A stretch of DNA of 42,553 nt, from positions 1 through 42,553 of the forward strand of contig JASJQH010006909.1 in NCBI GenBank assembly GCA_040143965.1, given 5' to 3'. The notes beneath the pieces are model-generated. The model worked only from the letters and a program-made list of their open reading frames with translations, was not told the origin of the DNA and ran no database searches. Origin of the DNA: Basidiobolus ranarum (taxonomy: Eukaryota). Positions 288 through 36,645 of this stretch are shown piece after piece (within the stretch, counting starts at the first letter, position 1; every line of letters starts with the position of its first letter). Made by a program: the position numbers and the translations under genes.

Positions 288-1997
288 TTATGCGTTAGGC
301 ACAAGCAACTTGATAAAAACGGTAGCAAAGACATTGATGGCTGCAAATACAAGGAAAGTATAAGGGCCTAATGCCTGCTTCATAGTAGGGATAATCAATC
401 CTACAGCGAATGTGCCACTATTTTTATGAATGTTAAGGTGAGTATGGGCATGGTAGATATGGTCCAGACATAGTTAATAACTTACATCCATCCAATGCTT
501 GTAGCAGCACCAACAACTGCACTAACTGCTACTGTTGGCATGATTTCTGGAATGATAGTAACAGTCACAGGTCCCATTCCGATCGCAAAGGAAGCCACAT
601 ACAGTAAAGCTATATAAAACGTAGGAACATTAGAAAGATATCATCAAGATGATCATGAATACTGTAAACATACATGAAGCGACGACCAATAGCTCGATGT
701 TGTATTTGGAAGCAATAACCATCGCAATAGCCATTATAGCCATCCCCCCAGCACTGATTAAAAGCAGGAGCTTACGACCGGTGCGAGCAATGATTATAGC
801 CGAGACGGAGGTCATGATCACATTGATTACAGCGATACCAACGGTAACATAAGAAGCTTTTTCTGGGCCGAAAACATCTTTGAAGATGCTTTGAGAGTAG
901 TAAATAATCCCAATGATCCCGGACAGAGGTTGAAGAGCAAATAAGATGATACTAATGATACTAAATCTTCTAAGGGAGTGATCACGTAGCACGTCGAGTA
1001 TATTGAGGGGCTTCAAAGCCGTAATCACGGTGACGTTTTGACTTTCTTCGTCAGTTTGTTCTGTAAGAGTCTTATCCTTCAATCCTTGACAAGTAATGAT
1101 GGTTTTCTCCTCGCATACTTTTTCACTGCTCAAACCAGTGGAACTAGGATTCTCTGAGCATAATTGAGTAGAACTGGTAGGTGTGACATTATCTTTATCA
1201 CCACGTTGTGCATCTAACATTTCCTGAAATTCGTTTTCGGTATCACATCCTTTTCTCAACTTCTCTAATACCTCTCTGCCTTCATCAAGTCTACCAGCCA
1301 TAATAAGATAACGTGGGGTTTCTTTACAGAAGCAAAGAAGTACGGCTTGAATAGCTGCAGGAGCGATAGTGGCACCCATTAACCATCTCCACCCGGGGAT
1401 ACCGTTGAATAATAGACAAAATACCTGAGCAATCAAAATACCAAGCATTTGAGAAACTTCAAAAAGCACTCCCATGGTACCTCTGAGACGGTTGGTGGAA
1501 GTTTCAGCAATGTATGTGGGAACAGCAACACCAGCTACGCCACTTCCGACTCCTACTAAAAGACGGCCCATAACAAATAGAGGTGTGGATGTGGACATCG
1601 CAAGAGCTAAACCTCCAACCATAAATATGATATTGTTCCACAACAATGTATTTCTGCGTCCAACTTTACTTGTGATATGACCAGCTGCCATACTTCCTAA
1701 CAACCCCCCGAGAGCAAATACACCTACAGCAAAACCCCTACCAGGTATAAGTAACATGATTGGATTACCAACATTTTAGTCAAGATTTAATTACCAAACA
1801 AGAGGCTCCATAGGAAGGCAATCTGGAAAATAAGCGCCGGTACCCTTGGGAGGGCACACGAGAATCACATCCTGGGAGATATTTGGCACACCAGAATTGT
1901 ATCCAGCATTTAAACCAGCAAGAAGTGCACTGAAATTGCTAAACAAGGTGTATGCATCAAATACTTTATATCTAGAATCGCGGCTGTTGGTATTCAT
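288..1997 (-). CDS. MFS sugar porter (GLUT/HXT-like), 4 exons: 1795-1997, 674-1737, 486-609, 288-417
   Basis: Sugar-porter motifs GRRNTL, GRLLVGVGSG, PTYIAE, RLRG, ETPRYL, QPLSGI..IIYY, GRKLLLL, GMGPV. GT-AG introns at 1738-1794, 610-673 and 418-485 join the ORFs in frame; ends ...LVPNA* (TAA 288-290). Confidence 0.9.
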
Positions 1998-3714: not shown

Positions 3715-4549
3715 GCCCTAGACAACTCTTCAATGATTTCAAAAGCAGACCAAGACAAACCCCATTGCTTGTTCTGCTCGCATGTATCTTTGCACTGTAT
3801 GTCGATCTTGCAGCATCTCTGATCTCCCTCCGGAGAGATGAAACAAGTCTCAGATTTATTTAGACTTTTTTTTCAACTTGATCTCCGCCTTTTATTTCAA
3901 TGTCAATCACACACTTACTAACCCTAAGAGCATCTGTGCACTAGATCTTGGTGTACAATCCTGTGGTTGCTTCAACTATGAGCTACGGTAGAAATCGTCT
4001 CGGTAGCTTTCTCTTAATTTAATAATCATTAAGAAGGAAGGTCCTAACAATACCAACATATGTCTTTTTAATGAATTCATTGGTCCAATGACGGACTTGG
4101 ATATGGTAGAAACCATGTAAAATAGCGATAGACCTTTGTGTCCTCCTCCTCATCATTGCCTTCACCGAATGCGCTCTTAGTTAGTGTCTAGTTGCCCTCC
4201 AAATATGGTAGGAATCCCCTTTTTTTCTTACGATTGTTTATTGCTTTTTGCTTGGGAGTTCGATGGGATAGTAATGCGTAGAATTCCTGGCCACCTACTA
4301 TTAGTTAATGGTAATTTGAATACCTTCATTAGAAAAAAAAAATATTCCTATAATCGTGATATCAGTAATGTTCAGGTGTAACATAAGAATTAAAGCTAGT
4401 ATTTGGCATGCAACTATCTAATATACTAAATAAAATCAATTTCCTCCACCTGCAATTACATAAAGGCTTTAAATTTTGTTTCTTATATTGGCGCTTCGAA
4501 ATAAGTGACTGAAACAAAAGGTGTTTTTTATGAGATCAAAGGCTTAGTT

Positions 4550-10648: not shown

Positions 10649-11755
10649 CTACAAAATATGACATTTGCTCTTCTTCTTTCTTTTCTCGCTAGGATTACTG
10701 CCAGGCTTGTTACTACCTTCTCGAGATGCACGAATCATTCGCACAACTGTATAGAAGGATTTTTCCACATTTACGGATGTCTTGGCTGATGCTTCGATGA
10801 ACTCACAGCCAAGTCTTCGAGCTAATCCGAGCCCTTCTTCTTTGGAAACTTCTCGTTCATTAATTTTATCGCATTTATTTCCAACAAGCATCACTGGAAC
10901 TCTTTCCGTGTCCTTTACACGAATAATTTGGTCGCGAAATCTTTCGACTCGCTCAAAAGTAGAGCGAGAGGAAATAGAATAGACCACTAAGAACCCCTCT
11001 CCATCTCTAACATAAAATAACAACTTAGCTATTAAGTAAAGTACGTTCAACTATAAACTGTGTACTACAAACCTAATCCATTGGTCACGTAGAGCAGTAT
11101 ATTCCTCTAAAAATGAGGAGGGTATTAGCCACAAGTTACGTAGAATAGTTTACTTAAAAACCCGTTAAATTACCTTGGCCAGCAGTATCAAGAACCTCAA
11201 GCATGCAAGACTGCTCATCTATGACGGCTTGTTTACGATAAGAATCCTCAATGGTAGGATCATAAGTCTAGAATAATCCGCATAAATAATTAACACAAAT
11301 CCTCATAAGTTTAAAGCAAAAATATCATGGAAATACCTCTGAATATTTAAATCGTCATTTTCAGAGGGATTAAATGAACTTGGTTAGTTGAAACATTAAG
11401 AAGCACAAATAGGATTGATTTCAGTACTGACCCACGAAATGATTCAAACAAAGCTATATCATCAAGCAACAAATAATTAAAAGAGAAACTAGGTAAATAA
11501 TTGTGAAAGTTGTGTGATAAAATAACAATTCCACTGTGTAAACAAAAAGAAGAGACTGCTACACTGGATAACTAACCTGGATAGTAAGCGCAGTCTATGA
11601 AATAACGTAAAGCAACATTTAGTACACGAAATACACTGAAGAATAGTCGCATATAACCAGTAATTGAGGGAATATGAGTTGATGTGTAATAACTGAAAAG
11701 CCCGTACCTTTCCAACACCACCATCGCCAAGTACAACTAATTTATATAAAACCAT
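10649..11755 (-). CDS. rasB: Ras GTPase, fungal RasB/Ras2 type, 191 aa; exons 11708-11755, 11577-11594, 11432-11453, 11337-11338, 11174-11267, 11073-11106, 10649-11006
   Basis: Spliced product [40 protein letters not shown]...[22 protein letters not shown]...NKCD...EASAK...[10 protein letters not shown]. All G-boxes, effector loop, polybasic stretch and CAAX present; exon total 576 nt. Confidence 0.95.
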
Positions 11756-13772: not shown

Positions 13773-16244
13773 CTATTGCTGTACAATTTTGGATTCCTTC
13801 AGAAATTCAGTGTACAGTTGTGGGAAATGGGTTTTTAGATGCTGGTATACTTTTTGTACTTCTGTAGCTCGTTTTCGATGTTGCAGCGGAGTCAGTAGTG
13901 TTCGACATGTTTTCACACTTGGTTTAACTTGCATAAGTGGCATTTCGTCTACAAAGATCCGAATTGCTTCGTGGATTGCCTCGTGTCGACAGAGCGCCTC
14001 CATGTACGAGTTGAAGTTATTCTCGTCAAGTGAAAACCGTTCGTATTTAAGCGATTGCCAAGTAGACTGTAATGTCCGCAGGTCATTGTTGTATCCACAT
14101 GAATCCAATAGAACAGAGATGGTGCTGTTAAAGGAGGATTTGGGGAATGGGCGGGTTTTCACGTTATTCCAGAGATCTAATACCTTAGTACCTTCACCCA
14201 TCTGAGAATAGCAATGCATGATGATCGAGTAAGTGTGAGAATTAGCGGGGATATTGTTCTTGATCATCTCCCCGTATAATGCCAGACTTGTCTCATAAGT
14301 CTTCTTCTTGGCGTATCCATGCATCAAGGTGTTGTAGCTTATCGTAGAAGGGCCGTCCTCAGTCTTTGTCATCTCGTCAAAGACCTGTTGTGCCTTGACC
14401 AGATCGTGGTTTTTGACATACGCATTGACAAGTGAATTATAAGAAACTGTGTCGGGCTTGATTCCACATTCCTTCATTTCCTCCAAGAATCCATGGGCCC
14501 GAAAGACATCCGAGTGCTTTGCACAAATGTTGATCAACACATTAAAAGTAACCAAAGAAGGCTTTACTCTCGAATCGACCATGTCTTGGTAAACTGAGAG
14601 AGCTTGGTCCATTTGCGAATGCTCTCCAAAAGACTGGATTAAATTGGTGTAAATAACGGTATCCGGTTGAATATGACGTTTCCGCATCTCTGCATAGAGA
14701 TCTACAGCCTGCTCAAGAGAGGCGCACCTGGAGTATGTCTGAATGAGTGTAGAATAGATAATAGGACTCAGTGGAACTCGGTTGGTCAGCATATCTTGGT
14801 ACAGCTCTTGCACTTTGTCAATGTTCTGTTGCTTTCCGCAAGCATCAAGGAGAATGGAGTATATTACAGTATCAGGGCGTACTCCGGCCTTGAGCATATC
14901 TTTATAAGCATCTAGAGCCTTTCCAATGTTGTCACCTCTTATGTAGCCTCGTATGATACAAGAATAGGTTACAACATCGGGCGCAAGACTCTTGTGCTTC
15001 ATGTCTTGAACCAATTTAAATGCTGATTCAAGATCCCCGGATTGGGCAAAGCCATTAATTAAGGAGTTGTATATAACACGATCAGGTTTGACTTTAGAGT
15101 TGACCATCTCATTCAGAATGTCGAGGGCTTTTTGATTTTGTTGAACATTGAGGTGTCCATTGATAAGCAAAGAAAAGGTGACTACCGTGGGGTGTATCTT
15201 CAACTTCAACATATCCTGATAAAGTGATAATGCTCGGTCAATCTGCCGACTTTTGGTGAGTACGTTGATTAATGAATTGAATACAATGACGTCTGGAGTC
15301 AGATTTTGAGTCCACATCTCCTCATACAATCTCAATGCGCTATTCCAATCTTTTCGAGAGGCGTATCCGTTGAGGAGGATGGAAAATGTGAAAATATCTG
15401 CTACAAGTCCTTGTGCCCGCATCTCTTCATAGATCTGCCCCGCCTTTTCAACATTACCTAGTTTGGTGTAAGCGTCAATAAGAATATTATAGGTCATCAG
15501 AGAGGGCTTAAGACCATTCTCCTGCATATTCCGATGGATTTTGCTGAGTAAATCTCCAAACTTATGCCTCTTACACAGACGGAGCAGAATGTGATATGTC
15601 GCTCTGTTCGGTGTAAAGTCACTCTTCATGTTAGTCTGGAATATTTCGAATGCTCGGTAAGGTTTGTTGAAACCTACACTGTCAATCAATGTATTGTATG
15701 CATGGGTGTTAAGTCGTAAGCCTTGCATTTTTATACCTTCCAGAAGTACACCTGCTTGCTCAATCTCTCCATGCCTTTCATAAAATGAAATTAAAGAGAT
15801 ATTCTGTAATGGTGTGTTGAATTGGACCTTGCTTCGTTTCATAGTTTCTATGATAGTTTTTCCTTTGGATTGACTGTAACTAAATAAAGCGAGAACCTTT
15901 GAATAGTTCTCTGGAGAAATAAGAAGTTCCGGCTGCTTTTCTTTTAAAGATAAAAATAACTCCCAAGCCAGTTTTCTGTCCTTCTTTCTTACAGCTTTTA
16001 TCAGTGCTTCGGGCGTAGCTATAGGGTCAGAGGATAGTTGTTTTGGAAGACATTGCTCTCTAGTTTGATGTATAGATTGACTCTGAGTATGACCCACTTG
16101 ACTCAAGAAGCGGGGCTTCGAGGAAGCGGATTTAGGTTCGAAAGTAACACTTGTTCGATGGTGAAATGTGTGGGAAAGTCTTAAGGTACAGCAACGAGAG
16201 ATGATACCAAACCGTTTAGTTAATACCGGAAACGGCCTCAACAT
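13773..16244 (-). CDS. Pentatricopeptide repeat (P-type PPR) protein, 823 aa, probably mitochondrial
   Basis: At least 14 tandem ~35-aa repeats (e.g. RVIYNSLINGFAQSGDLESAFKLVQDMKHKSLAPD). Arg/Ser-rich, acid-poor N-terminus from ATG 16244. Intronless. Confidence 0.93.
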   Translation of the reverse strand: MLRPFPVLTKRFGIISRCCTLRLSHTFHHRTSVTFEPKSASSKPRFLSQVGHTQSQSIHQTREQCLPKQLSSDPIATPEALIKAVRKKDRKLAWELFLSLKEKQPELLISPENYSKVLALFSYSQSKGKTIIETMKRSKVQFNTPLQNISLISFYERHGEIEQAGVLLEGIKMQGLRLNTHAYNTLIDSVGFNKPYRAFEIFQTNMKSDFTPNRATYHILLRLCKRHKFGDLLSKIHRNMQENGLKPSLMTYNILIDAYTKLGNVEKAGQIYEEMRAQGLVADIFTFSILLNGYASRKDWNSALRLYEEMWTQNLTPDVIVFNSLINVLTKSRQIDRALSLYQDMLKLKIHPTVVTFSLLINGHLNVQQNQKALDILNEMVNSKVKPDRVIYNSLINGFAQSGDLESAFKLVQDMKHKSLAPDVVTYSCIIRGYIRGDNIGKALDAYKDMLKAGVRPDTVIYSILLDACGKQQNIDKVQELYQDMLTNRVPLSPIIYSTLIQTYSRCASLEQAVDLYAEMRKRHIQPDTVIYTNLIQSFGEHSQMDQALSVYQDMVDSRVKPSLVTFNVLINICAKHSDVFRAHGFLEEMKECGIKPDTVSYNSLVNAYVKNHDLVKAQQVFDEMTKTEDGPSTISYNTLMHGYAKKKTYETSLALYGEMIKNNIPANSHTYSIIMHCYSQMGEGTKVLDLWNNVKTRPFPKSSFNSTISVLLDSCGYNNDLRTLQSTWQSLKYERFSLDENNFNSYMEALCRHEAIHEAIRIFVDEMPLMQVKPSVKTCRTLLTPLQHRKRATEVQKVYQHLKTHFPQLYTEFLKESKIVQQ

Positions 16245-16428
16245 ATTAGCGATGGGGAAGTAAATACTTATCTTCCGCCAAAATGAATGATCGACTAATA
16301 AAAAACCTGAAAATGACTCGAGCTCTATTACCACGATTGAACACAAAGTAATACGTCTTTAACCGTCAATCATGAAATTGGACTTATCAGACCAGTTTCC
16401 CAAAAGCTACCCAAAAGGTTGTATGAAA

Positions 16429-20036: not shown

Positions 20037-21059
20037 TTATTCTTTTACATTGGCAAGCGAGGTAGGTAATTCGTGAATGGTTTGAGTAATATAACCACCA
20101 GCTTTATGCTTGCCAGCTGGGGCAGGGATTCTTCGATTCCAGAACTCGTCGAAGCGTTCACGACAATTATTACGTGCGTCTATCCAGCACCCGGCAAAAT
20201 GTATCAGGAAATCACCTTCGTGATAGGTATGAACTGCATCCATATCACCACAAGCCTCCGGAGGGAACGCGTTAAATTTTCGTTGATTCACAAAGTAGAA
20301 TCGATCGGCGACCTCTTCGTCAGTCTGATAGAGGAATTGGAACACTCCCTGCTCTGCGTAACCAAAACGATATGCGAACTCGGGGGCGTATACACGCTGT
20401 AAGAAATTTTGAGTCCAAGGTGAGTTGTGAATCATAAAGCTACCAGCATTCATGCCATTACAATCCCAGGAGATGACAAACTCTTTTTGAGCATACTTGG
20501 GTTGTGTCAAGTTCCCTAGGATGTGTTCTTCAAGTTTAAGGAAAGGATCTAAGATAACCGTGTCGATATCTATCCACCAAAACCACTTGATATCGGGATT
20601 GCTTTTCATGTGCTTCAAAAGAGTTAGGATCTTCCCCCAGGCCTGAATCATTGTTTATTAGCTCAATGGTAAGAGTAGACATAGAAAATGGTCACTTACT
20701 GGAACACGGGAGTTATCGTATATCCCATCCTCAATATAATGATAGCCGTGAAACCTCGCATATTCTTCTTTGTTATGAGCTGATCTTGGTAAATAATGAG
20801 ACTCTGCGTTGTTGAAGGCGACAACTACGGCGATTTCTTCAGGGCGAACCATGGGTAGAGGACCCTCTGTTGTGGTGTCCAGTCCTAATGCAGTTTTAGC
20901 GCGATGTGCTACATTGGCTTTGTGAGAGCTCGGTATTAAAGTAATGGTTATGACCAATAGAATAAATAGGCCAAGTATGTAGTAGCGCCTGGGCAAACGA
21001 CGTCCTTGCATAGATAGATTGTCCTTTGTATATGTAGAACGGCCGAAAGTCACCGACAT
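20037..21059 (-). CDS. GT34 (GMA12/MNN10-family) Golgi glycosyltransferase; exons 20700-21059, 20037-20642
   Basis: Type II transmembrane anchor YYILGLFILLVITITLI; NKEEYARFHGY, AWGKI, WFWWIDID (DxD), GMNAGSF, EQ, GDFLIHFAGC. Intron 20643-20699. Confidence 0.92.
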
Positions 21060-21651: not shown

Positions 21652-22018
21652 AATGACCATCGAATATTATGCAGTAGAGGAATTGTGCATGCCATTTGCT
21701 TTGTTCACTATGAGGCCTAGGTTCTTAATTACTGCTTTTCACTTCACGGTAATTGATTGGACAGTTACACGGCTATCGCTTTCTTAACTCGATTCACACG
21801 ACTCGGTTAAGTACTAGAATTATTCTCAGCTTGAAAATAATTACTATTGATGACATATTGTTTGACAGCTTTCAATTAATTTTGTATTGATTCGGAAGCT
21901 GATGGACGGATAATTGCTACTTGTGGTTACTTAAAAAGGTTTGGACCGCTCGAGACCACCCAGTGAGTATAAAAATCCTGGAGTGTAGGTTGAATTTAGT
22001 TGTCATACTATTTGCAAT

Positions 22019-23461
22019 ATGAATTCTTTGCGTCAGTCCGCTCTTCGTGGTAGTTCTCTCAATAGAGCGTTATTCCTAACCTCCAAACGTACCCTCTTTA
22101 CCAGGAAAACTCCCAAAATCGTTACTCCAGAGGAGGCAGTATCGGTAGTTAAGGATAATGATCGTATCTACCTCCATGGTGTTGCAGCTTTCCCTCGTAC
22201 TCTATCACTTGCACTTGCACAACGTTATAAAGAGCTAAAAAACGTTGAGTGCATTCACATTCATATTGAGGCCTCTAACCCTTGCTGTCCTCTTACTGCC
22301 ACTACTGAAATGAAAGATCAGTTTGCTGTCCCTCCAACTTTGGAGGAAATGAAAAAGGCCTTCTTCGTTAACAACTTCTTTGTTGGTGCCAACCAAAGAA
22401 AGGCTGTTCAAGAAGGTCTCAGCAGTTATGTACCATGCTTCCTCAGTGAGTTACCTGCTTTAATGCGTCGTGATATTGTTCGTCCCAACGTGGCCCTTCT
22501 TAATGTCTCTCCTCCAAACAAGCATGGTTATGTTTCCCTTGGTGTTGAAGCCTGTACCTCTTTAGCTGCTGTTGAAACTGCCGATATCGTTATTGCTCAA
22601 ATCAATCCTAATATGCCACGTACACACGGTGATTCTTTGATCAGCATTAACAACTTCGATTACATTGTTCCCGATGTCGACGAGAAACTCCCAGAGCACT
22701 TCAGTGGCGCCATGACACAACAGGATCGTGATATTGGTAGAATCATCGCTGGACTCATCGATGATGGTGCCACCCTTCAAATGGGTATCGGGTCTATTCC
22801 TAACGCTGTATTGGCCTCTCTCACTAACCATAAGAACTTGGGTGTACATACTGAAATGTTCCAAGAAGGACTTATTCCACTTATGGAGAGCGGTGTAATT
22901 ACCAACAGAAACAAGAAATTCATGCCAGGCAAGGTAGTCACATCATTCGTTGTTGGTAGCAAGGTTCTATACGACTACATTGATGACAACCCAGAGATCA
23001 GCTTCGTTGACGTGAGTGTTACAAATAGTCCCGTTGTAATTTCCAGTAATCCCAAGGTTGCCGCTATTAACGCTGCCGTCGAGGTTGATATTACTGGTCA
23101 GGTCTGTGCTGATTCTATCGGTACCCGTCATATTTCCGGTGTCGGAGGTCAAGTTGACTTTGAACGTGGTGCCGCTATGAGTGAGGGAGGTATTCCCATC
23201 ATTTGCCTTCCCTCAACTACCCGAGTGAAGGGTGATCCTAATGCTGTTGGCCACTCGAAGATTGTCAACACTCTCAAACTCGGTGCTGGTGTTGTTACCT
23301 CTAGATACCATGCTCACTACATCGTTACTGAATACGGTTATGCTTTCCTCTTCGGCAAGAATTTGTTACAAAGAGCCAGAGCTATGATCGATATTGCCCA
23401 TCCTGATCACCGTGAGCAACTTCATAAGGAAGCCTTCGAGCGTTACAAGGTCTTGGTCTAA
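22019..23461 (+). CDS. Acetyl-CoA hydrolase/CoA-transferase, 4-hydroxybutyrate CoA-transferase / ASCT-IB type, with mitochondrial presequence
   Basis: DGATLQMGIGSIP, LGVHTEMF, EVDITGQVCADSIG, SGVGGQVDF, VTEYG. Arg/Ser/Leu-rich N-terminus. Intronless, 480 aa. Confidence 0.93.
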   Translation: MNSLRQSALRGSSLNRALFLTSKRTLFTRKTPKIVTPEEAVSVVKDNDRIYLHGVAAFPRTLSLALAQRYKELKNVECIHIHIEASNPCCPLTATTEMKDQFAVPPTLEEMKKAFFVNNFFVGANQRKAVQEGLSSYVPCFLSELPALMRRDIVRPNVALLNVSPPNKHGYVSLGVEACTSLAAVETADIVIAQINPNMPRTHGDSLISINNFDYIVPDVDEKLPEHFSGAMTQQDRDIGRIIAGLIDDGATLQMGIGSIPNAVLASLTNHKNLGVHTEMFQEGLIPLMESGVITNRNKKFMPGKVVTSFVVGSKVLYDYIDDNPEISFVDVSVTNSPVVISSNPKVAAINAAVEVDITGQVCADSIGTRHISGVGGQVDFERGAAMSEGGIPIICLPSTTRVKGDPNAVGHSKIVNTLKLGAGVVTSRYHAHYIVTEYGYAFLFGKNLLQRARAMIDIAHPDHREQLHKEAFERYKVLV

Positions 23462-23762: not shown

Positions 23763-25575
23763 TTAACTCCAATCCTACAAAATGGGAAATATGTTAATTG
23801 AATACAATCCACTTCAATCTAAGCAAAAGACTACGTTACCCTGTCAGGCAAGAGAATTGGTCCAAGTAGTGACCAACTGTACAAACCAATACAGAACCAA
23901 CTGGATACTACTTTCACCCAAACTGCAGGCCAACTGGCACCGATTCTGATCATCTCGGAAGTGTCCGAGTAACTATTCCAGTTGGTTAATAACATGGACA
24001 CATACATAGCTCCAATGGCAAAAATGATATGGAAAAATGTATAATTGTACTGGCAACCGTGCTTTTCATCGTCAGTGGCCGTCCCTGGTTCGTCATCATC
24101 ATCATCTTCAGAATGCTCAGCGTCGTTTAGAGCTGAAGCAGGTAATGCTCTAGAAACATGGCCAAAGTAAATATCTCGTGAATTTTAAAGTAAATAAATG
24201 TTCACTTACCCGCTTTCAATGGCTGCCATCAAAGCCTCAGATTTCATCCCTTTGCTCTTTCCAGGCTGGCTATCGATAAGCGGAACTGCAGCGGCAGAAT
24301 TGACTGGGTCATAATCAGTGGAGCTGATCAATGAGCTACTCTGAGTAGCTGCTCTAGAAGTGGAGTATACAATAGCTACAATAGTGAACATAGCACCAAA
24401 GAGAACGGCTGTATGACGTGTACTACGACTACGAATAGGGTTACAATAGTAATCATCACCAACAACAGGCTCATTCATAACGGCACTTAAGATCAACCAA
24501 CTGCAATAGATGGCAACCATAGAGGCTTGCGACAGTCCGGACTTACTATTAGCTTCTTGGATTTGAGGGTGAACGGAGAGGAAAGTGATAAGCACGCAGA
24601 GGACCAAATTAAACGTGATGAAAAATTGATTCAGTCCGCATCCATTTCTACCAAAATATGCGTACATAACTCCGATCAACGCAAGTACAATTATGAACAT
24701 TCCAATGGAAGAGCCGACAACGATATATTTCCACTTGTCATTACTATCATTTTCCCATTTTTCAATGCACGATTCACTCCAACTATGAGCAAAATCTACC
24801 AAAAGTGCAAGCTGTACAAGAATAAAGAAGGATGCTCCAATGATGGCAATGTAATTTCCCCAGAACGCAAAAAATCCATTGGGAATGAAAAATGCAATCA
24901 CAGTAAGGAGAAGCCAAGCAAATACTTTAGGTCCCCACCAGCTATAAGTTATTCATTGAGTGAATCTGAAGGAAATTCGGGTATTAAATCTGAAGTACAT
25001 ACCCGTTTTGAATGGAAGCACGAGGCTCACGACTGTCGTTCACATTCCAAACCAAGGCACTCAAAATAAAATGAAACAAGGCGAGAGCAAAGCAGATTCT
25101 ATGTACCTGATTTGATGATAAAGGGATGAATAAATCCATACTAAAGAACATTTAGCTTGTAATAGAAGTCTACCGCGAAAGCTCCATAACAGCGCCCTTC
25201 TGGGCAGTGAAGAGTTAAATATCCATAAGTTATGTCAGACAGTGTTTTCATTGCCCAGTCAGTTAGCATGAGCCATGATAACTATAAATAAAAAATATGA
25301 GAAAAAATGGCTTGAAACTAGACAAAAGGAATAGATAATAGTAGAATTGGCTACCAACCAAAGAGGAAACTAAGAATATCCCCTAAGAACAAATGCAAAA
25401 CATCCAGTTAGTTCACCAAGAAGTAACTACGTAAGATAACAATTTTATTTACAGCGTATGAAAGCCTAGTAGCAATCGAGCCTTGAATCTTGAATATTTT
25501 AGAGGCACAAGAACAAGCAGTGGAAGTGCAACAAGAGCATATTTGCATTGAGAGGCAACTGACGATGCATCCCAT
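23763..25575 (-). CDS. TMS1: Serine incorporator (SERINC/TMS1/TDE) membrane protein, multi-exon
   Basis: Cys-rich N-terminus MGCIVSC..CSCC, SIATRLSYA, CYGAFAVHRICFA, FILVQLALLVDFAHSW, SGLSQAS, YNYTFFHIIF, MLLTNW, WVKVVSSW; ends LLPDR|DWS* via intron 23775-23839. Confidence 0.93.
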
Positions 25576-28048: not shown

Positions 28049-28629
28049 CATTATGGTTGCTATCCGTACTTGTTCTAGTGGATATCGTAGTTATTCTAGT
28101 TGCTATACCATATTTGCTTACTCTGGCTGCTTATAATTGCAGTATTTGCTGGTCAGGGGGTTTATATTAATCGAAATGGCGAAATGGTCTACAAGCTCTA
28201 TGACCAAATGATTCTAGATATATCAACCCCGGTTCTTCCAAATGCGTATTTGTGGTTAGCACGCTGAGAGTTCACCGCCAATTGCGATAAACAATGCTGA
28301 TCAATATGCATGTGCCAGGGATGAATGATGGACTAAGAGATGTAGGTTTTAGAACTGCAGATAACACTGGCCACACACTCACACACAATCATACGTACTC
28401 GAACACAGAAATCATCGAATTCTGAGCTCTCCTAATACATGCAAGTCCGATGAGATCAACAAATTTGGTGTGCTGACGAAGTTTTTCTCAAGTTACACCT
28501 GATACCGGTTTTGGAACAGCATAAATTACCTCAGCTGGTAAATCGTACTCGCACCTTTTCTTTTTCTTGCTTCCTTAACTCATTTGGTGTGATATCTCTG
28601 ACTAATCATCCATTGACTTGAACTAAAAG

Positions 28630-31600
28630 ATGTCAAACGAAGCTGGTTACGAGTCGAACCAGCCGGTACAAAGTATCCCTAGTGTTGCTACTACAGACCC
28701 AGTAGAGAGAGATCTCCCTAACTTACCAACTAACGAGCCTAATCAGCCTAATGGAGAGCCAGAAATCTCCACTGAACAACGCGTAGCTGATGCTCACATA
28801 GAAGCAGACAAGGTCATGTCTGATTCGAAAGCACCAGTCCACTCTTTTAATCCCAATGATACTCCCGAAGAAAAAGCAAAGAAGGCAAGAGAAGCTCCTG
28901 GCGTAGCAGATGTAACCGCAAATAACCCACTCTTAGATGGCCCACAAGCCAAGACCATTATTAGCGATGCTACCCTACCTTCAGGTAACGGAAAGACTTC
29001 AGAAAGTGAAGGAGCAGTCAAAGCTGCTGAAAAGTCCAAACCAGCCAAAGAAACCGCTGCTGAAGTTAAAGCAAAGCCTAAGAAAGATCTTCCACCACCT
29101 ATCCTTGGCTGGCGTGAGTCTAATGATGATTTCATGAAGAAGTATGCTGGTCAAGAGTGGCAGAATTATATTGCTATCACTGTGTTAATATTGGGTGGCT
29201 TTCTCGTGTCTCGTTTGTATTTCGGATTCGGGTGGTGCTTGATTGTTATCGCCTTCGGTACACAATACTACGCGAATTCGGTGCAACGTCACCGCCGGAA
29301 CGTTCGTGATGATATCACCCGCCAATTAGCTGTTAACAGGCTATTCAATGACTCAGAATCTACTGAATGGCTCAACAGCTTTGTCAGTAAATTTTGGCTT
29401 ATTTACGAACCAGTCCTTTCAGCCATGGTGGTTGAGATTGGCGATGGAGTGTTGGCAGAAAACACTCCAGGATTCCTCGATTCCCTTCGTCTTTCTCACT
29501 TCACCCTGGGAACTAAGGCTCCAAGAGTAGATTCCGTTAAAACCATAAACAACAATAATGGTGAGAAAATCGAAATGGAATGGGAATTTTCCTTCACTCC
29601 CAATGACACTATGGACATGACCAAGCGTGAGTTGGAGACCAAAACCAATCCCAAGATTTGCCTAGAGATTCGTGTCGGTAAAGGTATTGTTGGAGCTGGT
29701 ATGCCCATCTTGGTTGAGGATTTCGCCTTCAAAGGAAGAATGCGGATCGGTATTTATCTTATGAGCACCTTCCCTCACGTCAAAACTGTCGACGTTAGCT
29801 TCATGGAGCCACCAGTCATTGACTATGTTCTGAAGCCACTCGGTGGTGAGACCTTTGGATTTGATATTGCTCACATTCCAGGATTACAAACATTTATCAG
29901 AGATCAAACCAATGCTGTATTAGGCCCCATGATGTATGCTCCTAACGTGTTCACCCTCGATGTGGAGCAAATTATGAGTGGTGTTGACATGGAGGCTGCT
30001 GTTGGTGTCCTAAAGATTACCATCCGTAGTGCCAGAAACCTAAAGAATGTGGAGTTGATTGGTATGTCGGATCCTTATGTTATCCTTCAATGTAACAATC
30101 GCGCCGAGCTTGCCCGTACCTCCGTCAAATATAACACACTCAACCCTGTTTGGGATGAAACTTACTATGTACTCCTTCACAATATCAGTGATAACCTATC
30201 CTTAGAAATCTTTGACAAAGAAGATGTCCAAAAAGATCGAAGCTTGGGTACTGCCACATTCGACTTGTCTACCCTGAACGACACTCCAGAACAAACCGAT
30301 ATTCTTGGAAAAGTTATCCGTGAGGGAGGTAAAGAATCTGGAGAATTGTTGTACGATCTGGCCTACTATCCAGTAATTCCCCCAGTTAAGAATGAAGATG
30401 GAACTGAATCACCAGTCGAATCCAACAGCGGTATTCTCAAGGTGTTCATTCATCAAGCCAAGGATCTCAGCTCCACCTGTGATGCCTATGGTACGGTCAA
30501 ATTAAATGGCAATGCTATTCTTAAGACTCAGGTTATCAAGAAGAAAAACAACCCACTCTGGGAGAAGAATGTGGAGATGTTCATCAGCGACAAGAAGAAC
30601 GCCATATTTGAAGTCGATGTAATGGATGAGCGTGGCTTTGTGGCTGACCCAGTGATTGGAAAATTCACCACTACCTTGGATGAGGCACTAAACCGTGATG
30701 GCCAAAATCCTTGGTACAGTCTTGACGGCTCTGCTGGTAAGGTTAGAATGACCTTTGTATGGAGACCTGTAGTTATCAAGGGTGGGGTTTTATCTGCCGG
30801 ACGCCTTGCTCCTCCTATTGGAGTTGTACGCCTTGACTTGATATCAGGACTTAAATTGAAGAACACCGACCTTCTTGGAAAAGCCGATCCATACATCATT
30901 GTCTCTGTAGCTAACAAACAAAAGGCACGAACTGAGTACATCGAGGACAGCGTAGATCCTACTTGGAACGAGACTCATTTCATTGGAGTACGCAATCCTC
31001 GTGAGATCTTCGTCATTGAAGTTTACGATTGGGATAAATTTGGTAAAGACTCATTGATTGGAAGTACATCTCTTAACATTTCTGAACTTCTGGGTCCCCA
31101 GATTGCTGAAGGTCAATTCGGTGAAGGTCCAGTAAAGCAGTACCAGCAACCAATTAAGTTTGAAAGCAAAGAACGTGGTACCGTTTGCTTCAATGCTCAT
31201 TTCTACCCAACAAACCCAATCACTACTCCACAAGAAGAGCATGCCGAAGGTGTAAAAGAAATTACCGAGTTGGAAGCGGCCGAAGGCTCAGTCGTTGAGA
31301 AACCGGAAGAGAAACCAGCCGAGCCAATCGATTATACTCAATTTAGTACTGGATTGTTATCTGTCCTTATTGGTAGCACTAAGGAAACCAAAAAACAGTT
31401 AGACAGTTGCTTTGCTGAAGTGCTAATCAACAACAATGAGTATAACATTGTTCACCGTACCGAAGTCAAGAAGAAGGTCACTGATCCTATCTTCAACGAA
31501 GAATGCGAAGCGTTTGTTCAAGAAGCGTTATTTACCAAGATATCTGTTTTGATTCGTCAACATAACGATAGCCGCACAGAGATTGCAAGAGTTACTCTTC

Positions 31601-33051
31601 CTGTCACGGAAATCTTGGACATCTTAACTAAAACTAATTCCAATGACTCTTCTTGGTATGAATTCGAAAACCATCCTGGAAAAATCCAACTGGCCTTCAA
31701 GTTCACACCAGTCAATGTTGATATCGACGAGGCGTTGAGTGTAACCAACAAGGGAGTTGTCGCCGTAAAGATCATTAAAGCCAATAATCTTAAAGCTGCG
31801 GACTCTTCCGGTTTAAGTGATCCATTTGTACGAGTAAAATTGAACGATGAAAAGGTTTTCAAGACGAAAACCATTAAAAAGAGTCTAAACCCGGAGTTTG
31901 ATGAAGAATTCAGTGCATCTTTGATGTCTCGTAATCAGGATGTATTCTTGTTCGAAATCTTTGATTGGAATCAATTCCAATCTCAAGAATTATTAGGCCG
32001 TGTGCAAGTAAATGCTAAAGACCTCGAACCATCAGTTGCCTACGTTAATGAATTTCCTCTTACCTCTGGTGAAGGCACTTTAACCCTTAGCTTCCTGTTC
32101 ACTCCCGAGCATGTTGGTAAGTTGATGTCTGACCGCAAAGGAACCATTGGTGGAACAATTGGTGGTGCAGCACTTGGCGGTGCAGCAACAGTGGTTGGGG
32201 GAACACTAGGAGCTGGTAAAACAGTTGTTGGTGGTACCTTAGGAGCAGGAAAGTTCGTAGTAGGTGGTACTTTGGGAGCTGGCAAATCTGTAGTAGGTGG
32301 CGCCAAGGGACTATTCGGTCTTGGTAAAAAGAAATCTGTCGATGGTACTGAGGCATCACCCAACCTTACCGAAAATACAGTCACCCCTGTCCCTATCGAC
32401 GCACCCGCTCCTGTTCCCGCTCCAGTGGTAGCCAGTGTCCCAATGGAAGCTGCTGCTGCTGGACCCGCCGCCATGAGTGATACTATTGATTCTAATGCCG
32501 AGGCAGAGAGTGATATTACTGGTGATAGTGGACCAGAAACCTTTGGAACTGAAGCTACCGGTCAGCCCGGAACCATCACTATCTTCGTACTAGAAGGTAG
32601 TAATTTACCCGCAGCAGACAGCAATGGTATGAGTGATCCTTACATTAAAATCCGATGGGGCAGAAAAGTAGTGCATAAAACCAAAATCATCAAGAAGACA
32701 CTGGCACCCATCTGGAATGAGAGCTTTACCATCCCAACCAATGGATCCCGTGTAAGACTACATTTCTCAGTTAAAGATCACAACCTTTTGCAAGACACTA
32801 CCCTAGGTGAATATGAATTAGATGTTTGGGATAGAATTCACCCCGCCAGCAATGTCATGTCAGATGAGTTCCTAGCACCTCTAGCCAATGCTGAGAAGGG
32901 ACAGATCAAGCTACGTATTGAATTCACCCCAGATGGAGGTAGCAACCCAGTTGGCCAAGGCGATAACTCTGCTCCTAGTAGTGAATATGGCGACGTGAGC
33001 TCCAAGAAATTTGGCTTTAGCTCATTTAGGAAGAAAAATTTTAGCGGATAG
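28630..33051 (+). CDS. Tricalbin / extended synaptotagmin (TM hairpin, SMP domain, about six C2 domains), 1473 aa, intronless
   Basis: ESTEWLNSFVSKFWLIYEPVLS, FTLGTKAPR (SMP); repeated SDPY/SDPF...NPxW C2 motifs; basic C-terminus. Confidence 0.96.
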   Translation: MSNEAGYESNQPVQSIPSVATTDPVERDLPNLPTNEPNQPNGEPEISTEQRVADAHIEADKVMSDSKAPVHSFNPNDTPEEKAKKAREAPGVADVTANNPLLDGPQAKTIISDATLPSGNGKTSESEGAVKAAEKSKPAKETAAEVKAKPKKDLPPPILGWRESNDDFMKKYAGQEWQNYIAITVLILGGFLVSRLYFGFGWCLIVIAFGTQYYANSVQRHRRNVRDDITRQLAVNRLFNDSESTEWLNSFVSKFWLIYEPVLSAMVVEIGDGVLAENTPGFLDSLRLSHFTLGTKAPRVDSVKTINNNNGEKIEMEWEFSFTPNDTMDMTKRELETKTNPKICLEIRVGKGIVGAGMPILVEDFAFKGRMRIGIYLMSTFPHVKTVDVSFMEPPVIDYVLKPLGGETFGFDIAHIPGLQTFIRDQTNAVLGPMMYAPNVFTLDVEQIMSGVDMEAAVGVLKITIRSARNLKNVELIGMSDPYVILQCNNRAELARTSVKYNTLNPVWDETYYVLLHNISDNLSLEIFDKEDVQKDRSLGTATFDLSTLNDTPEQTDILGKVIREGGKESGELLYDLAYYPVIPPVKNEDGTESPVESNSGILKVFIHQAKDLSSTCDAYGTVKLNGNAILKTQVIKKKNNPLWEKNVEMFISDKKNAIFEVDVMDERGFVADPVIGKFTTTLDEALNRDGQNPWYSLDGSAGKVRMTFVWRPVVIKGGVLSAGRLAPPIGVVRLDLISGLKLKNTDLLGKADPYIIVSVANKQKARTEYIEDSVDPTWNETHFIGVRNPREIFVIEVYDWDKFGKDSLIGSTSLNISELLGPQIAEGQFGEGPVKQYQQPIKFESKERGTVCFNAHFYPTNPITTPQEEHAEGVKEITELEAAEGSVVEKPEEKPAEPIDYTQFSTGLLSVLIGSTKETKKQLDSCFAEVLINNNEYNIVHRTEVKKKVTDPIFNEECEAFVQEALFTKISVLIRQHNDSRTEIARVTLPVTEILDILTKTNSNDSSWYEFENHPGKIQLAFKFTPVNVDIDEALSVTNKGVVAVKIIKANNLKAADSSGLSDPFVRVKLNDEKVFKTKTIKKSLNPEFDEEFSASLMSRNQDVFLFEIFDWNQFQSQELLGRVQVNAKDLEPSVAYVNEFPLTSGEGTLTLSFLFTPEHVGKLMSDRKGTIGGTIGGAALGGAATVVGGTLGAGKTVVGGTLGAGKFVVGGTLGAGKSVVGGAKGLFGLGKKKSVDGTEASPNLTENTVTPVPIDAPAPVPAPVVASVPMEAAAAGPAAMSDTIDSNAEAESDITGDSGPETFGTEATGQPGTITIFVLEGSNLPAADSNGMSDPYIKIRWGRKVVHKTKIIKKTLAPIWNESFTIPTNGSRVRLHFSVKDHNLLQDTTLGEYELDVWDRIHPASNVMSDEFLAPLANAEKGQIKLRIEFTPDGGSNPVGQGDNSAPSSEYGDVSSKKFGFSSFRKKNFSG

Positions 33052-34372: not shown

Positions 34373-36645
34373 TTATATATAGTGATTGTTGTGGTGAGGA
34401 AACCAAGTTTCTATTAGAGTATCAACTGCTACTGGATGCTCGTTATTTATGAAATAGCTTACATCGGTTAGTAGTAGATCTTGAATGCTCATACGATTGT
34501 TGGGTGGAAAGCACTTGTTTGTAGAAATGTTGTTCTCGGAGACATACGATAAAGGTGGAGCTGGATAATTAAAAGTAGGTTGATAATCTTCCTGAAGACT
34601 ATATACGGGTGCCTCTTGTGTCCACGACTCGAACTTCGTGTCTAGACCATAGGAGTCGAAAGTCCCTCCTATTGTTGAGGCTGGATGTGCGTTTTCCCCT
34701 TGTTCATTAACAAGCTGTTGAATTGCTGCAACTATTTCATCCTGAGTAGGCACTCCATCGTATTCTGTCTGTGTATAATGTTGGTCAGCGAAGGGTTGGT
34801 TCTCCATGCAGTTTGTGTTTTGAAGAACAGGTTGATCTTGATATGTGTAATCAAATTGACCTTGTAATTGATCCACCCACTGGGAATTATCATAAAAGGC
34901 GAATTGTTCCGGGTGGAAGACTTGTTCGTATTCGATATTATTTTGAAAAGATTCCTTAACAACATTGGGTTGATATTGGGGAACGAAATTGACTTGAAAA
35001 TCTTCGGATTTTCTTTCGTTTCGATAATCCGGAAATTGAGAGGCACCTTCGACCTCTTGGATGACATTGTACTGTTGTACCATCTGACTACACGAGTTCG
35101 TATTTTCACTAGTATTAGGATACATGGAATCACTCTCCGAAATAGTTTGGAGTGAAACGTAGCCTTCATCGCTTGGGTAAGAATGATCAGATTCTTCATT
35201 AGAGTTGTTATCATCTGGATAGACATCTTCTGAGCAACTTATTAGCGAGGATTCTGTCGGGCATTCAGGTGTGTTGACGGAGACTTTACGAGTCACTGAG
35301 TCAAGTAAAGCGTCGAGTTCCATGTAGCTATTATGATCAGAAGCATATCGCGAATGAATGGAGGATTGTACATGCTAATCAAGATTATCATTAGAAACCC
35401 AATTTCTCCAACAAATTTTATGTGTGTACTTACCTCCTCTAAATCATCAAACTTGGCTTGACAATTCTCACAATATCCGGGTTTCTTGGGGATTACAACC
35501 ATGGGGTTGGATTTCGAAGTACTGACACTGGACGAGCAAGAAGCTGGCATCCGTACTTGTGCACTGCCAGGAATATTGCGATTCAATAACTTGTTTCGTG
35601 CTTGGGAAGTTTTCGGAGATCCAAGATCATCATCGTATTTAATAAATGGACACTTTCCCTCAGTGTTACGATACAACTTTGGCCAGGGTGTGGTTCCACT
35701 TTCATTGCCAGCTAGATATTCCCGTACAGCTATAGGTTTGTGAGTCTTTGTGGTGTCTTCCACCAACAAGTATATCTGTCTGAGATAATGGACATGTGTA
35801 GAGCTGTGCGGACTAATCCCGAAAACCTTTTCATCGCGTAGCACATCGTCTAAGGGCTTTGATGAGAGGTTGCTCATAGGAGACTTTAGAAGATGCCGAA
35901 GAATATTGAAAAGCTCTAGAAATGGATTAGTTTAGGTAATGTTGAAATTATATCACTATAAAAGGACACTTACTTTGTGTTGTCCACACTTTGATTCCCC
36001 ATTTGCCTGCATTTTGGGCCAGCTTAGATGCGGTGGCTGTTTTGGAAGTCTAGTGATATCGAAGTTGGTTGGAAATGTATTCATTTGATACGTTCAAGTA
36101 GATGCTATATTCTTACCTTTGATGAAGGAGAGGAGAAAGACATGGCTCGAGACGGTTTACCAGCACCGATGAGCTTGGAGTCCCCGGATTTATTTTGGCA
36201 GATAATCAAATGAGTGACTTTAGAGGAAAAGAACGGCTCAATTTTCTACATATTGAATGGTTAGTTTCCAAGGTGATATATTAACATAGTTGTGATTTTC
36301 ACTAACCCCTCCAAGTCGTTGAATCTGATATCTCATATCCTGTATTACGTTTTCTTCTATTTCATCAAAGTAAAATAGAAAGGTAGGGAAGGCTTTGCGA
36401 TAAGCCTTTGCCCAAACAGCAACATCAACTGAGTTCGCTTTGGGAGTGACCAAGGGCTTTTTGGGAACAGCAGTTTTTATACGTTTTGGAGTGAAAGAGT
36501 CTCGACTGTACTGTGATGGCTCAGTATGAATGTCCGAGAAAGTTTCTAATCCTCTCTTCTTGGAATTACGGGAGTTACCATTTGCTGATGGTACTACTTT
36601 CGTCTGTGAGTTTTCAGCGTGTAAAAGAAGAGTGGACCTACCCAT
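34373..36645 (-). CDS. DBF4: Dbf4/Dfp1 regulatory subunit of Cdc7 kinase, 5 exons
   Basis: Motif N (BRCT: FYFD..LGG-KIEPFFSSKVTHLII), motif M (YLLVEDTTKTHKPIAVREY..WPKLY...CPF), motif C zinc finger KPGYCENC..FDDLEE-HVQSSIH. Confidence 0.92.

Follow-up and report, generated by a model that had tools for sequence, protein, structure and literature searches.

A probable two-nucleotide exon in a Ras2-type GTPase gene of Basidiobolus ranarum and its conservation among fungi

The Ras2-type gene and its exons

The window, by which is meant the whole 42,553-nt stretch of Basidiobolus ranarum DNA analyzed here, is an ordinary fungal nuclear region around a Ras2-type small-GTPase gene. Long open frames nearby, at window positions 630-1775, 13773-16358, 20037-20654, 21989-23461, 24206-24952, 28627-33051, and 35293-35931, have as their matches a sugar transporter, a PPR protein (861 aa uninterrupted), a GT34 galactosyltransferase, an acetyl-CoA hydrolase, Serinc, a multi-C2/SMP tricalbin-like protein, and Dbf4. 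The Ras2-type gene lies at 11755-10649 on the minus strand, where reading of the sequence and its translation gives seven exons and six introns, all six of the latter GT..AG. Its parts are the following (a slash, here and below, marks a splice boundary).

11708..11755, minus strand: exon 1, 48 nt, with the ATG at 11755-11753; codes for the P-loop and is followed by the donor gtacgg
11595..11707, minus strand: intron 1, 113 nt, GT..AG
11577..11594, minus strand: exon 2, 18 nt, coding for TALTIQ
11454..11576, minus strand: intron 2, 123 nt, GT..AG
11432..11453, minus strand: exon 3, 22 nt, coding for LCLNHFV and supplying the G that opens the Glu30 codon; skipped by the deposited annotation
11339..11431, minus strand: intron 3, 93 nt, gtcagt...ttcag
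11383..11388, minus strand: branch-point-like ACTAAC in intron 3, read from the sequence, with a putative function
11337..11338, minus strand: candidate exon 4, the dinucleotide AG, bases 2-3 of the Glu30 codon, in the context ttcag/AG/gtattt
11268..11336, minus strand: intron 4, 69 nt, gtattt...ttctag
11174..11267, minus strand: exon 5, 94 nt, starting ACT TAT GAT; codes for switch I and the start of switch II, plus a G
11107..11173, minus strand: intron 5, 67 nt
11073..11106, minus strand: exon 6, 34 nt; its translation begins inside a split E codon and ends inside a split R codon
11007..11072, minus strand: intron 6, 66 nt
10649..11006, minus strand: exon 7, 358 nt with the stop TAG (10651-10649) counted in; codes for the stretch from DGEGF, by way of NKCD and SAK, to CHIL

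With the AG included, the seven exons give a CDS of 576 nt and a complete protein of 191 aa, with no internal stop and with the CAAX box CHIL. The hallmarks of Ras follow one another in a single open frame: the P-loop GxxxxGK[ST], switch I, switch II as DTAGQEEY, NKxD, SAK, and the CAAX box. The translation has the features of the Ras family and of its Ras2 subtype reading LCLNHFVETYDPT. The domain PF00071 (Ras family) is precomputed on the deposited protein of the gene (P0001), whose top matches are named RAS2 or small G-protein Ras2.

A first-pass annotation of this DNA had placed the dinucleotide at 11338-11337, the preceding donor at 11431, and the start of the next large exon at 11267, with introns of 93 and 69 nt, and these positions, lengths, and sequences are all exact. 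Exon 3 ends in TTC GTG G, its last base being 11432, and gtcagt follows from 11431. The same annotation held that joining exon 3 directly to exon 5 shifts the frame; indeed, without the AG the translation reads HFVDL and then meets a stop. Its further proposal, that inclusion of the AG restores Glu and a CDS of 576 nt, agrees with the translation, which is that of an uninterrupted 191-aa Ras.

The dinucleotide has the properties of an ultra-short exon (at most 3 nt). It lies between a canonical YAG acceptor and a GT donor, each of a complete intron; it keeps the frame and codes for a conserved residue, Glu30 (Glu in 39 intact relatives); and its position and coding content are conserved in orthologs whose introns have diverged. 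The pattern AGNNGT occurs a single time in the 164-nt gap between exon 3 and exon 5, precisely at this site. When the gap is shuffled, AG/AR/GT arises, with 40 nt or more left for each intron, in 3.0% of cases. Two other AG-to-GT pieces of the gap also rescue the frame (the 5-nt GATTT and a piece of 20 nt) and were rejected, as the residues that they add are not conserved. U12-type or AT-AC introns were rejected by eye, the donors being GT and unlike the U12 consensus.

Inside intron 3, the putative branch A (11384) precedes the acceptor G (11339) by 45 nt, and the sole AG between the two sits 5 nt past the branch A. The dinucleotide also closes a run of three very short exons of 18, 22, and 2 nt (11432-11594 plus the dinucleotide). 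Exons of 18 and 22 nt, the 18-nt one in the same position, are found as well in an AT-rich metagenome locus (L011, see following), which extends conservation beyond the dinucleotide to the whole series of short exons.

Conservation of the split glutamate codon

Metagenome contigs were scanned with an alignment of exon-7 fragments, and this yielded 80 related loci, distributed as follows.

Both flanking exons visible and split: 38/80
Two-nucleotide exon and the intron after it visible, exon 3 beyond the end of the contig (L005, L077): 2/80
Contiguous across the site: 32/80
Contig ends before the site: 8/80

Comparison of intron positions in orthologs, suggested in the first-pass annotation as a check, gives a consistent picture, since the split codon and an internal YAG/NN/GT are found in all 38 split loci. 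In each of them the upstream exon closes on the codon's initial G, with GT after it, and the downstream exon opens with a Thr codon directly after AG. The internal dinucleotide is AG in 34 loci, AA in three (L045, L069, and L078), and TG in one; it is AG as well in L005 and L077. AA also completes a Glu codon and is thus synonymous. Hence, acceptor/AR/donor is kept in 37 of the 38 split loci, as one would expect from the earlier claim that the two bases provide positions 2 and 3 of a Glu codon. The single TG, which codes for Val instead of Glu, belongs to L011, a gene with a divergent P-loop. This locus (L011:735-1184) is a divergent paralog with the P-loop GDRGSGK, in which the layout of acceptor, two bases, and donor is kept with TG; it could be a pseudogene or a neofunctionalized copy.

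By best match, L005, L006, L010, and L011 are nearest to proteins of Glomeromycota, and L016 and L019 are GC-rich fungal loci that are taxonomically unplaced. Nine of the remaining split loci were compared, and all nine are nearest to Ras proteins of Agaricomycetes; the FTLNCFVETYDPT-type family contains Ras1 of Schizophyllum commune. In the two GC-rich loci (L016:1576-1870 and L019:1085-1360), the exon after the dinucleotide is just 19 nt long (ACN TAY GAY CCN ACN ATC G). The Glu codon ahead of DSYRK is interrupted there by an additional phase-1 intron, so that exons of at least 22, 2, and 19 nt follow one another.

A nonredundant set was made of 31 loci, including the window, that share less than 30% of their 12-mers. 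In 30 of the 31, AG/AR/GT is found with both introns of at least 40 nt, versus a mean of 0.9% in gap shuffles; these loci being related by descent, a joint shuffle probability overstates their independence and is not a true P value. The gaps between the flanking exons resemble one another no more than shuffled sequences do, with a median global identity of 0.571 (0.544 when shuffled), whereas the 40 flanking exon bases have 0.775. Across 30 loci, a pyrimidine precedes the acceptor AG in 30, GT follows the exon in 30, and the donor has G at +5 in 23, a base that is absent from the window donor (gtattt). The introns around the dinucleotide measure 46-102 nt across loci. A six-base signal retained inside introns that appear otherwise randomized is the mark of selection, and the comparison shows a dinucleotide under purifying selection for Glu.

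Contiguous Ras2-type contigs give a second view of the junction. All 30 have the Glu codon (GAG in 23, GAA in seven) and read F[VI]-E-[TA]-YDPT. Most are about 1 kb long with an uninterrupted full-length frame, and several end in runs of A; because of this open frame and these terminal A runs, the ~1-kb contigs look like transcripts and are taken as transcript-like. No skipped junction, that is, one with the two bases absent, occurs among the 80 metagenome loci, a count made on assembled contigs, which would drop rare isoforms. A regular-expression match to such a junction in L052 is the acceptor of a downstream intron, with no join. In one transcript-like contig (L018:189-449), the region of the two-nucleotide exon is spliced and the intron after DTAGQ is apparently retained, the latter being thus still present once both introns around the dinucleotide had been removed.

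A search for a transcript and a genome of one species among the 80 loci (blastn, at least 93% identity) gave no full-length match and only two short ones, each confined to one exon: 71 nt at 95.8% identity and 96 nt at 93.8%. Pairing of transcript-like contigs with split loci at the protein level gave no near-identical pair, in a comparison confounded by read-through matches.

Seven contiguous loci are genomic and of ascomycete type, with an acceptor directly before LCLNHF and both introns flanking the Glu codon gone. These RasB-like loci are L028, L030, L032, L051, L059, L070, and L072 (around locus position 3840, or 567, or 2743). In genes of this type the intron before LCLNHF is kept and all downstream ones are lost, leaving a single exon from LCLNHF to the stop.

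In conclusion, the AG at 11338-11337 is very probably genuine, an exon of two nucleotides that a Ras2-type GTPase gene includes constitutively and that completes the codon of Glu30 at the entry to switch I; we put the probability at a little over nine in ten. Inclusion is inferred from the conservation of the site and from the transcript-like contigs of relatives.

Deposited proteins and alternative readings

A search with exon 7 finds P0001, the deposited RAS2 protein of B. ranarum, which is 100% identical over that exon. It has 183 residues, with TALTIQ joined straight to TYDPT and LCLNHFVE missing. The missing residues correspond to 24 nt, i.e., to exon 3 (22 nt) and the two-nucleotide exon, and by this sequence reading the predictor held the frame by dropping a good 22-nt exon. 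The absence of eight residues from a public protein thus follows from a predictor unable to place an exon of 2 nt, and the remark of the first-pass annotation that gene finders miss such exons holds for this very gene. The B. meristosporus protein P0003 and the B. ranarum paralog P0004 have 191 aa each and read LCLNHFVETYDPT. P0002 and P0006 are further B. ranarum paralogs. The annotation pipeline missed the dinucleotide in P0001 and P0006 and gave the full 191 aa for P0004; either one of the two introns is absent from the P0004 gene, or its model was rescued by protein evidence.

Similar scars are frequent among deposited proteins. They were counted in a Ras2-type set of 120 proteins, of which 40 were not evaluable and 80 remained, and in an Agaricomycete set of 120, all evaluable.

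Intact: 39 in the Ras2-type set, 107 in the Agaricomycete set
TIQ joined to T: 8 and 0
VE dropped (HF joined to T): 8 and 8
GVGK joined to T: 7 and 0
Read-through or insertion after HFV: 6 and 3
Glu present, upstream odd: 4 and 0
Other odd N-terminus: 8 and 2

The defect lies exactly at the Glu junction in 29 of the 80 evaluable Ras2-type proteins, and the same or a variant defect is found in 11 of the 120 in the Agaricomycete set, where intact entries are mostly transcript-derived or are genome models evidently containing the Glu codon. The HFV-G-K read-through of Mucor circinelloides and Calcarisporiella is the product expected from reading through G/GTAAG. Scars are found in proteins of Mucorales, Glomeromycota, Mortierellomycota, Kickxellomycotina, Zoopagomycotina, Entomophthora, a chytrid (Rhizophlyctis), and Piromyces, which suggests, indirectly, that the same split codon extends well beyond the groups with DNA in hand. 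One of the loci with AA (L078) has an exon 7 about 98% identical to Hymenopellis radicata P0182, which carries the scar joining HF to T; it is equally near the transcript-derived P0167, which has Glu.

Among the alternatives, regulated inclusion is compatible with a real two-nucleotide exon, and we consider it unlikely. Skipping would give a frameshifted transcript prone to nonsense-mediated decay and would in this way tune Ras dosage. It could take place by pairing of the intron-3 donor with the intron-4 acceptor, or by use of the exon's own AG as acceptor followed by resplicing at the regenerated G/gtattt. The stop that follows HFVDL when the dinucleotide is omitted fits such a role, as does the form YAG/AG/GT, in which a second AG stands by the GT as in a recursive site and which is found in 36 of the 40 loci with a visible two-nucleotide exon (34 of the 38 split ones, together with L005 and L077). 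However, skipped junctions are absent from the 80 loci, each of the 30 contiguous Ras2-type contigs has the Glu codon, and the three loci with AA retain the exon while lacking the second AG.

Much less probable is a single intron of 162 nt with a noncanonical GT...CT end, in which the AG at 11269-11268 would be kept as exon and there would be no exon of 2 nt. The bases before ACT are also AG, and the mRNA would be identical. Yet this requires a CT acceptor, whereas six of six introns of the model are GT..AG, and it leaves unexplained the internal YAG/AR/GT of 37 of the 38 split loci, whose introns are unalignable. Furthermore, AG precedes Thr in all 38 split loci, yet the codon is GAA in seven of the 30 contiguous contigs; since the terminal dinucleotide is invariably AG, only an AA exon, as seen in three loci, can supply it.

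It is likewise scarcely credible that a frameshift has made the gene a pseudogene, or that two bases went missing from an exon edge during assembly, with the internal AGAGGT a chance match. The 3.0% of gap shuffles that produce AG/AR/GT in the window allow for such a coincidence, but all other exons are intact, every Ras motif is present, and the same edges (..G/GT and AG/ACN) recur with the internal site in 37 of 38 other loci from many samples.

The least probable alternative is that the deposited model is correct, with exon 3 and the AG both skipped, a protein of 183 aa, and TALTIQ-TYDPT at the junction: this model keeps the frame and is the one publicly deposited (P0001). It lacks, however, the LCLNHFVE that the sister species and 39 intact relatives have, and it places a perfectly conserved 22-nt exon with canonical sites inside a supposed intron. 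The same deletion recurs in eight deposited proteins of unrelated fungi, as would be expected of a predictor artifact. In H-Ras numbering, this deletion would remove Phe28 and residues leading into switch I.

Ras2-type GTPases control fungal growth and morphogenesis, and the eight residues missing from the public protein lie next to the region that binds nucleotide and effectors. The error passes into any alignment, phylogeny, or structure model that draws on scarred entries. The case also provides a clean natural example of a two-nucleotide exon held by selection while the surrounding introns diverged beyond recognition, and it could serve as a test case for gene finders and aligners that are aware of micro-exons and as a system in which to ask how the spliceosome handles an acceptor and a donor 2 nt apart.

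Splicing, age, and known micro-exons

Introns 3 and 4 each have their own GT, AG, and branch-like sequence. Because these short introns carry complete signals, recognition would probably proceed across the intron, and exon definition would not be needed. With only 2 nt between the acceptor (11339) and the donor (11336), two spliceosomes would presumably be too close to assemble together, and the introns would therefore be removed sequentially from one transcript. Either order would leave a legitimate site, ...GTGGAG/gtattt in one case and ttcag/AGACT in the other. The first usable AG past ACTAAC (11388-11383) would be the acceptor of the two-nucleotide exon, and the exon's own AG would serve as the -2/-1 bases of the next donor. 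The latter AG may also act as a second, G-preceded AG beside the GT; its use would create a recursive site and lead to a frameshifted mRNA, a possible source of noise or regulation.

The arrangement is old, with YAG/AR/GT at the same codon in Glomeromycota-like loci, in the GC-rich unplaced loci, and in about 30 Agaricomycete-like loci; loci of ascomycete type have lost both introns flanking the Glu codon. The scars of chytrid and Neocallimastigomycota annotations hint that the exon may date to the fungal ancestor, in which case it would be among the oldest and most widely kept exons of at most 2 nt known. A joint reading can be proposed in which the exon is at least as old as the ancestor of Basidiobolus, Glomeromycota, and Agaricomycetes and YAG/AG/GT is a recursive-splicing switch setting Ras dosage; taken as a whole, it is doubtful. 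Such a switch would work by directing Ras2 transcripts to nonsense-mediated decay, whether through the second AG or through skipping, and Ras dosage would be set by this means.

Two known arrangements resemble the Ras site. Recursive sites, or zero-length exons (PMC6224609), share with it an acceptor beside a donor, removal in two steps, and a 5′ splice site that is recreated or kept. However, no base of a recursive site stays in the mRNA, whereas here two are kept and translated, and the introns are short (93 and 69 nt). The site was thus rejected as a recursive splice site, two bases required by the frame standing between acceptor and donor. Stwintrons (PMC5639578 and others) are likewise fungal intervening sequences removed in consecutive splicing reactions. 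In a stwintron the inner intron breaks up the donor, branch point, or acceptor of the outer one, whereas the Ras introns are complete with a tiny exon between them; this class was rejected as well, both introns having intact GT, AG, and branch-like motifs in the unspliced sequence.

The closest parallels by size are in Coprinopsis cinerea, where a long-read survey, in the part available, counts 50 genes with 57 exons of 2 nt between them, describes fungal micro-exons as hardly investigated, and states that misannotated exons of 2 nt break gene models (PMC12230235). Like these, the Ras exon is internal, fungal, and exactly 2 nt long, and its omission breaks the frame. That survey, in the same part, concerns one Agaricomycete genome and mentions no gene for Ras, whereas the Ras case comes from an early-diverging fungus and is traced over distant groups. 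A literature search on two-nucleotide Ras exons and on fungal exons of 2 nt found no paper on a Ras micro-exon, and the C. cinerea lists may include the ortholog. In a Cryptococcus paper (PMC3990503), micro-exons appear only as an aligner setting.

A fungal exon of 1 nt is described for CYP621A of Fusarium (PMC12940212, in the part available). It resembles the Ras exon in that it lies in a conserved motif and was inferred from the incompatibility of exon phases and from orthologs. As given there, it is confined to one genus and one P450 family and has the support of archived reads, whereas the Ras exon has 2 nt and a far wider distribution.

Plants provide the other comparison. Arabidopsis APC11 has an exon of 1 nt, according to the section available of PMC4674806, and plant APC11 and VPS55 have conserved 1-nt exons that are missing from annotations, according to that of PMC8831610. 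These exons and the one of Ras are alike in being ultra-short, apparently constitutive, placed between ordinary introns, long conserved, and unannotated. The likeness extends to loss, as the plant exon disappeared along with both its introns in some lineages (PMC8831610, same section), and so, it appears, did that of ascomycete-type Ras loci. The plant exons have 1 nt and, in the accounts cited, were validated by RT-PCR and reporter constructs, whereas the Ras exon has 2 nt and is predicted here from sequence comparison. Exons of 1-2 nt are therefore already documented in fungi and plants; what is new is a deeply conserved case in Ras, which stands out by the depth of its conservation and by the amount of misannotation that it has caused.
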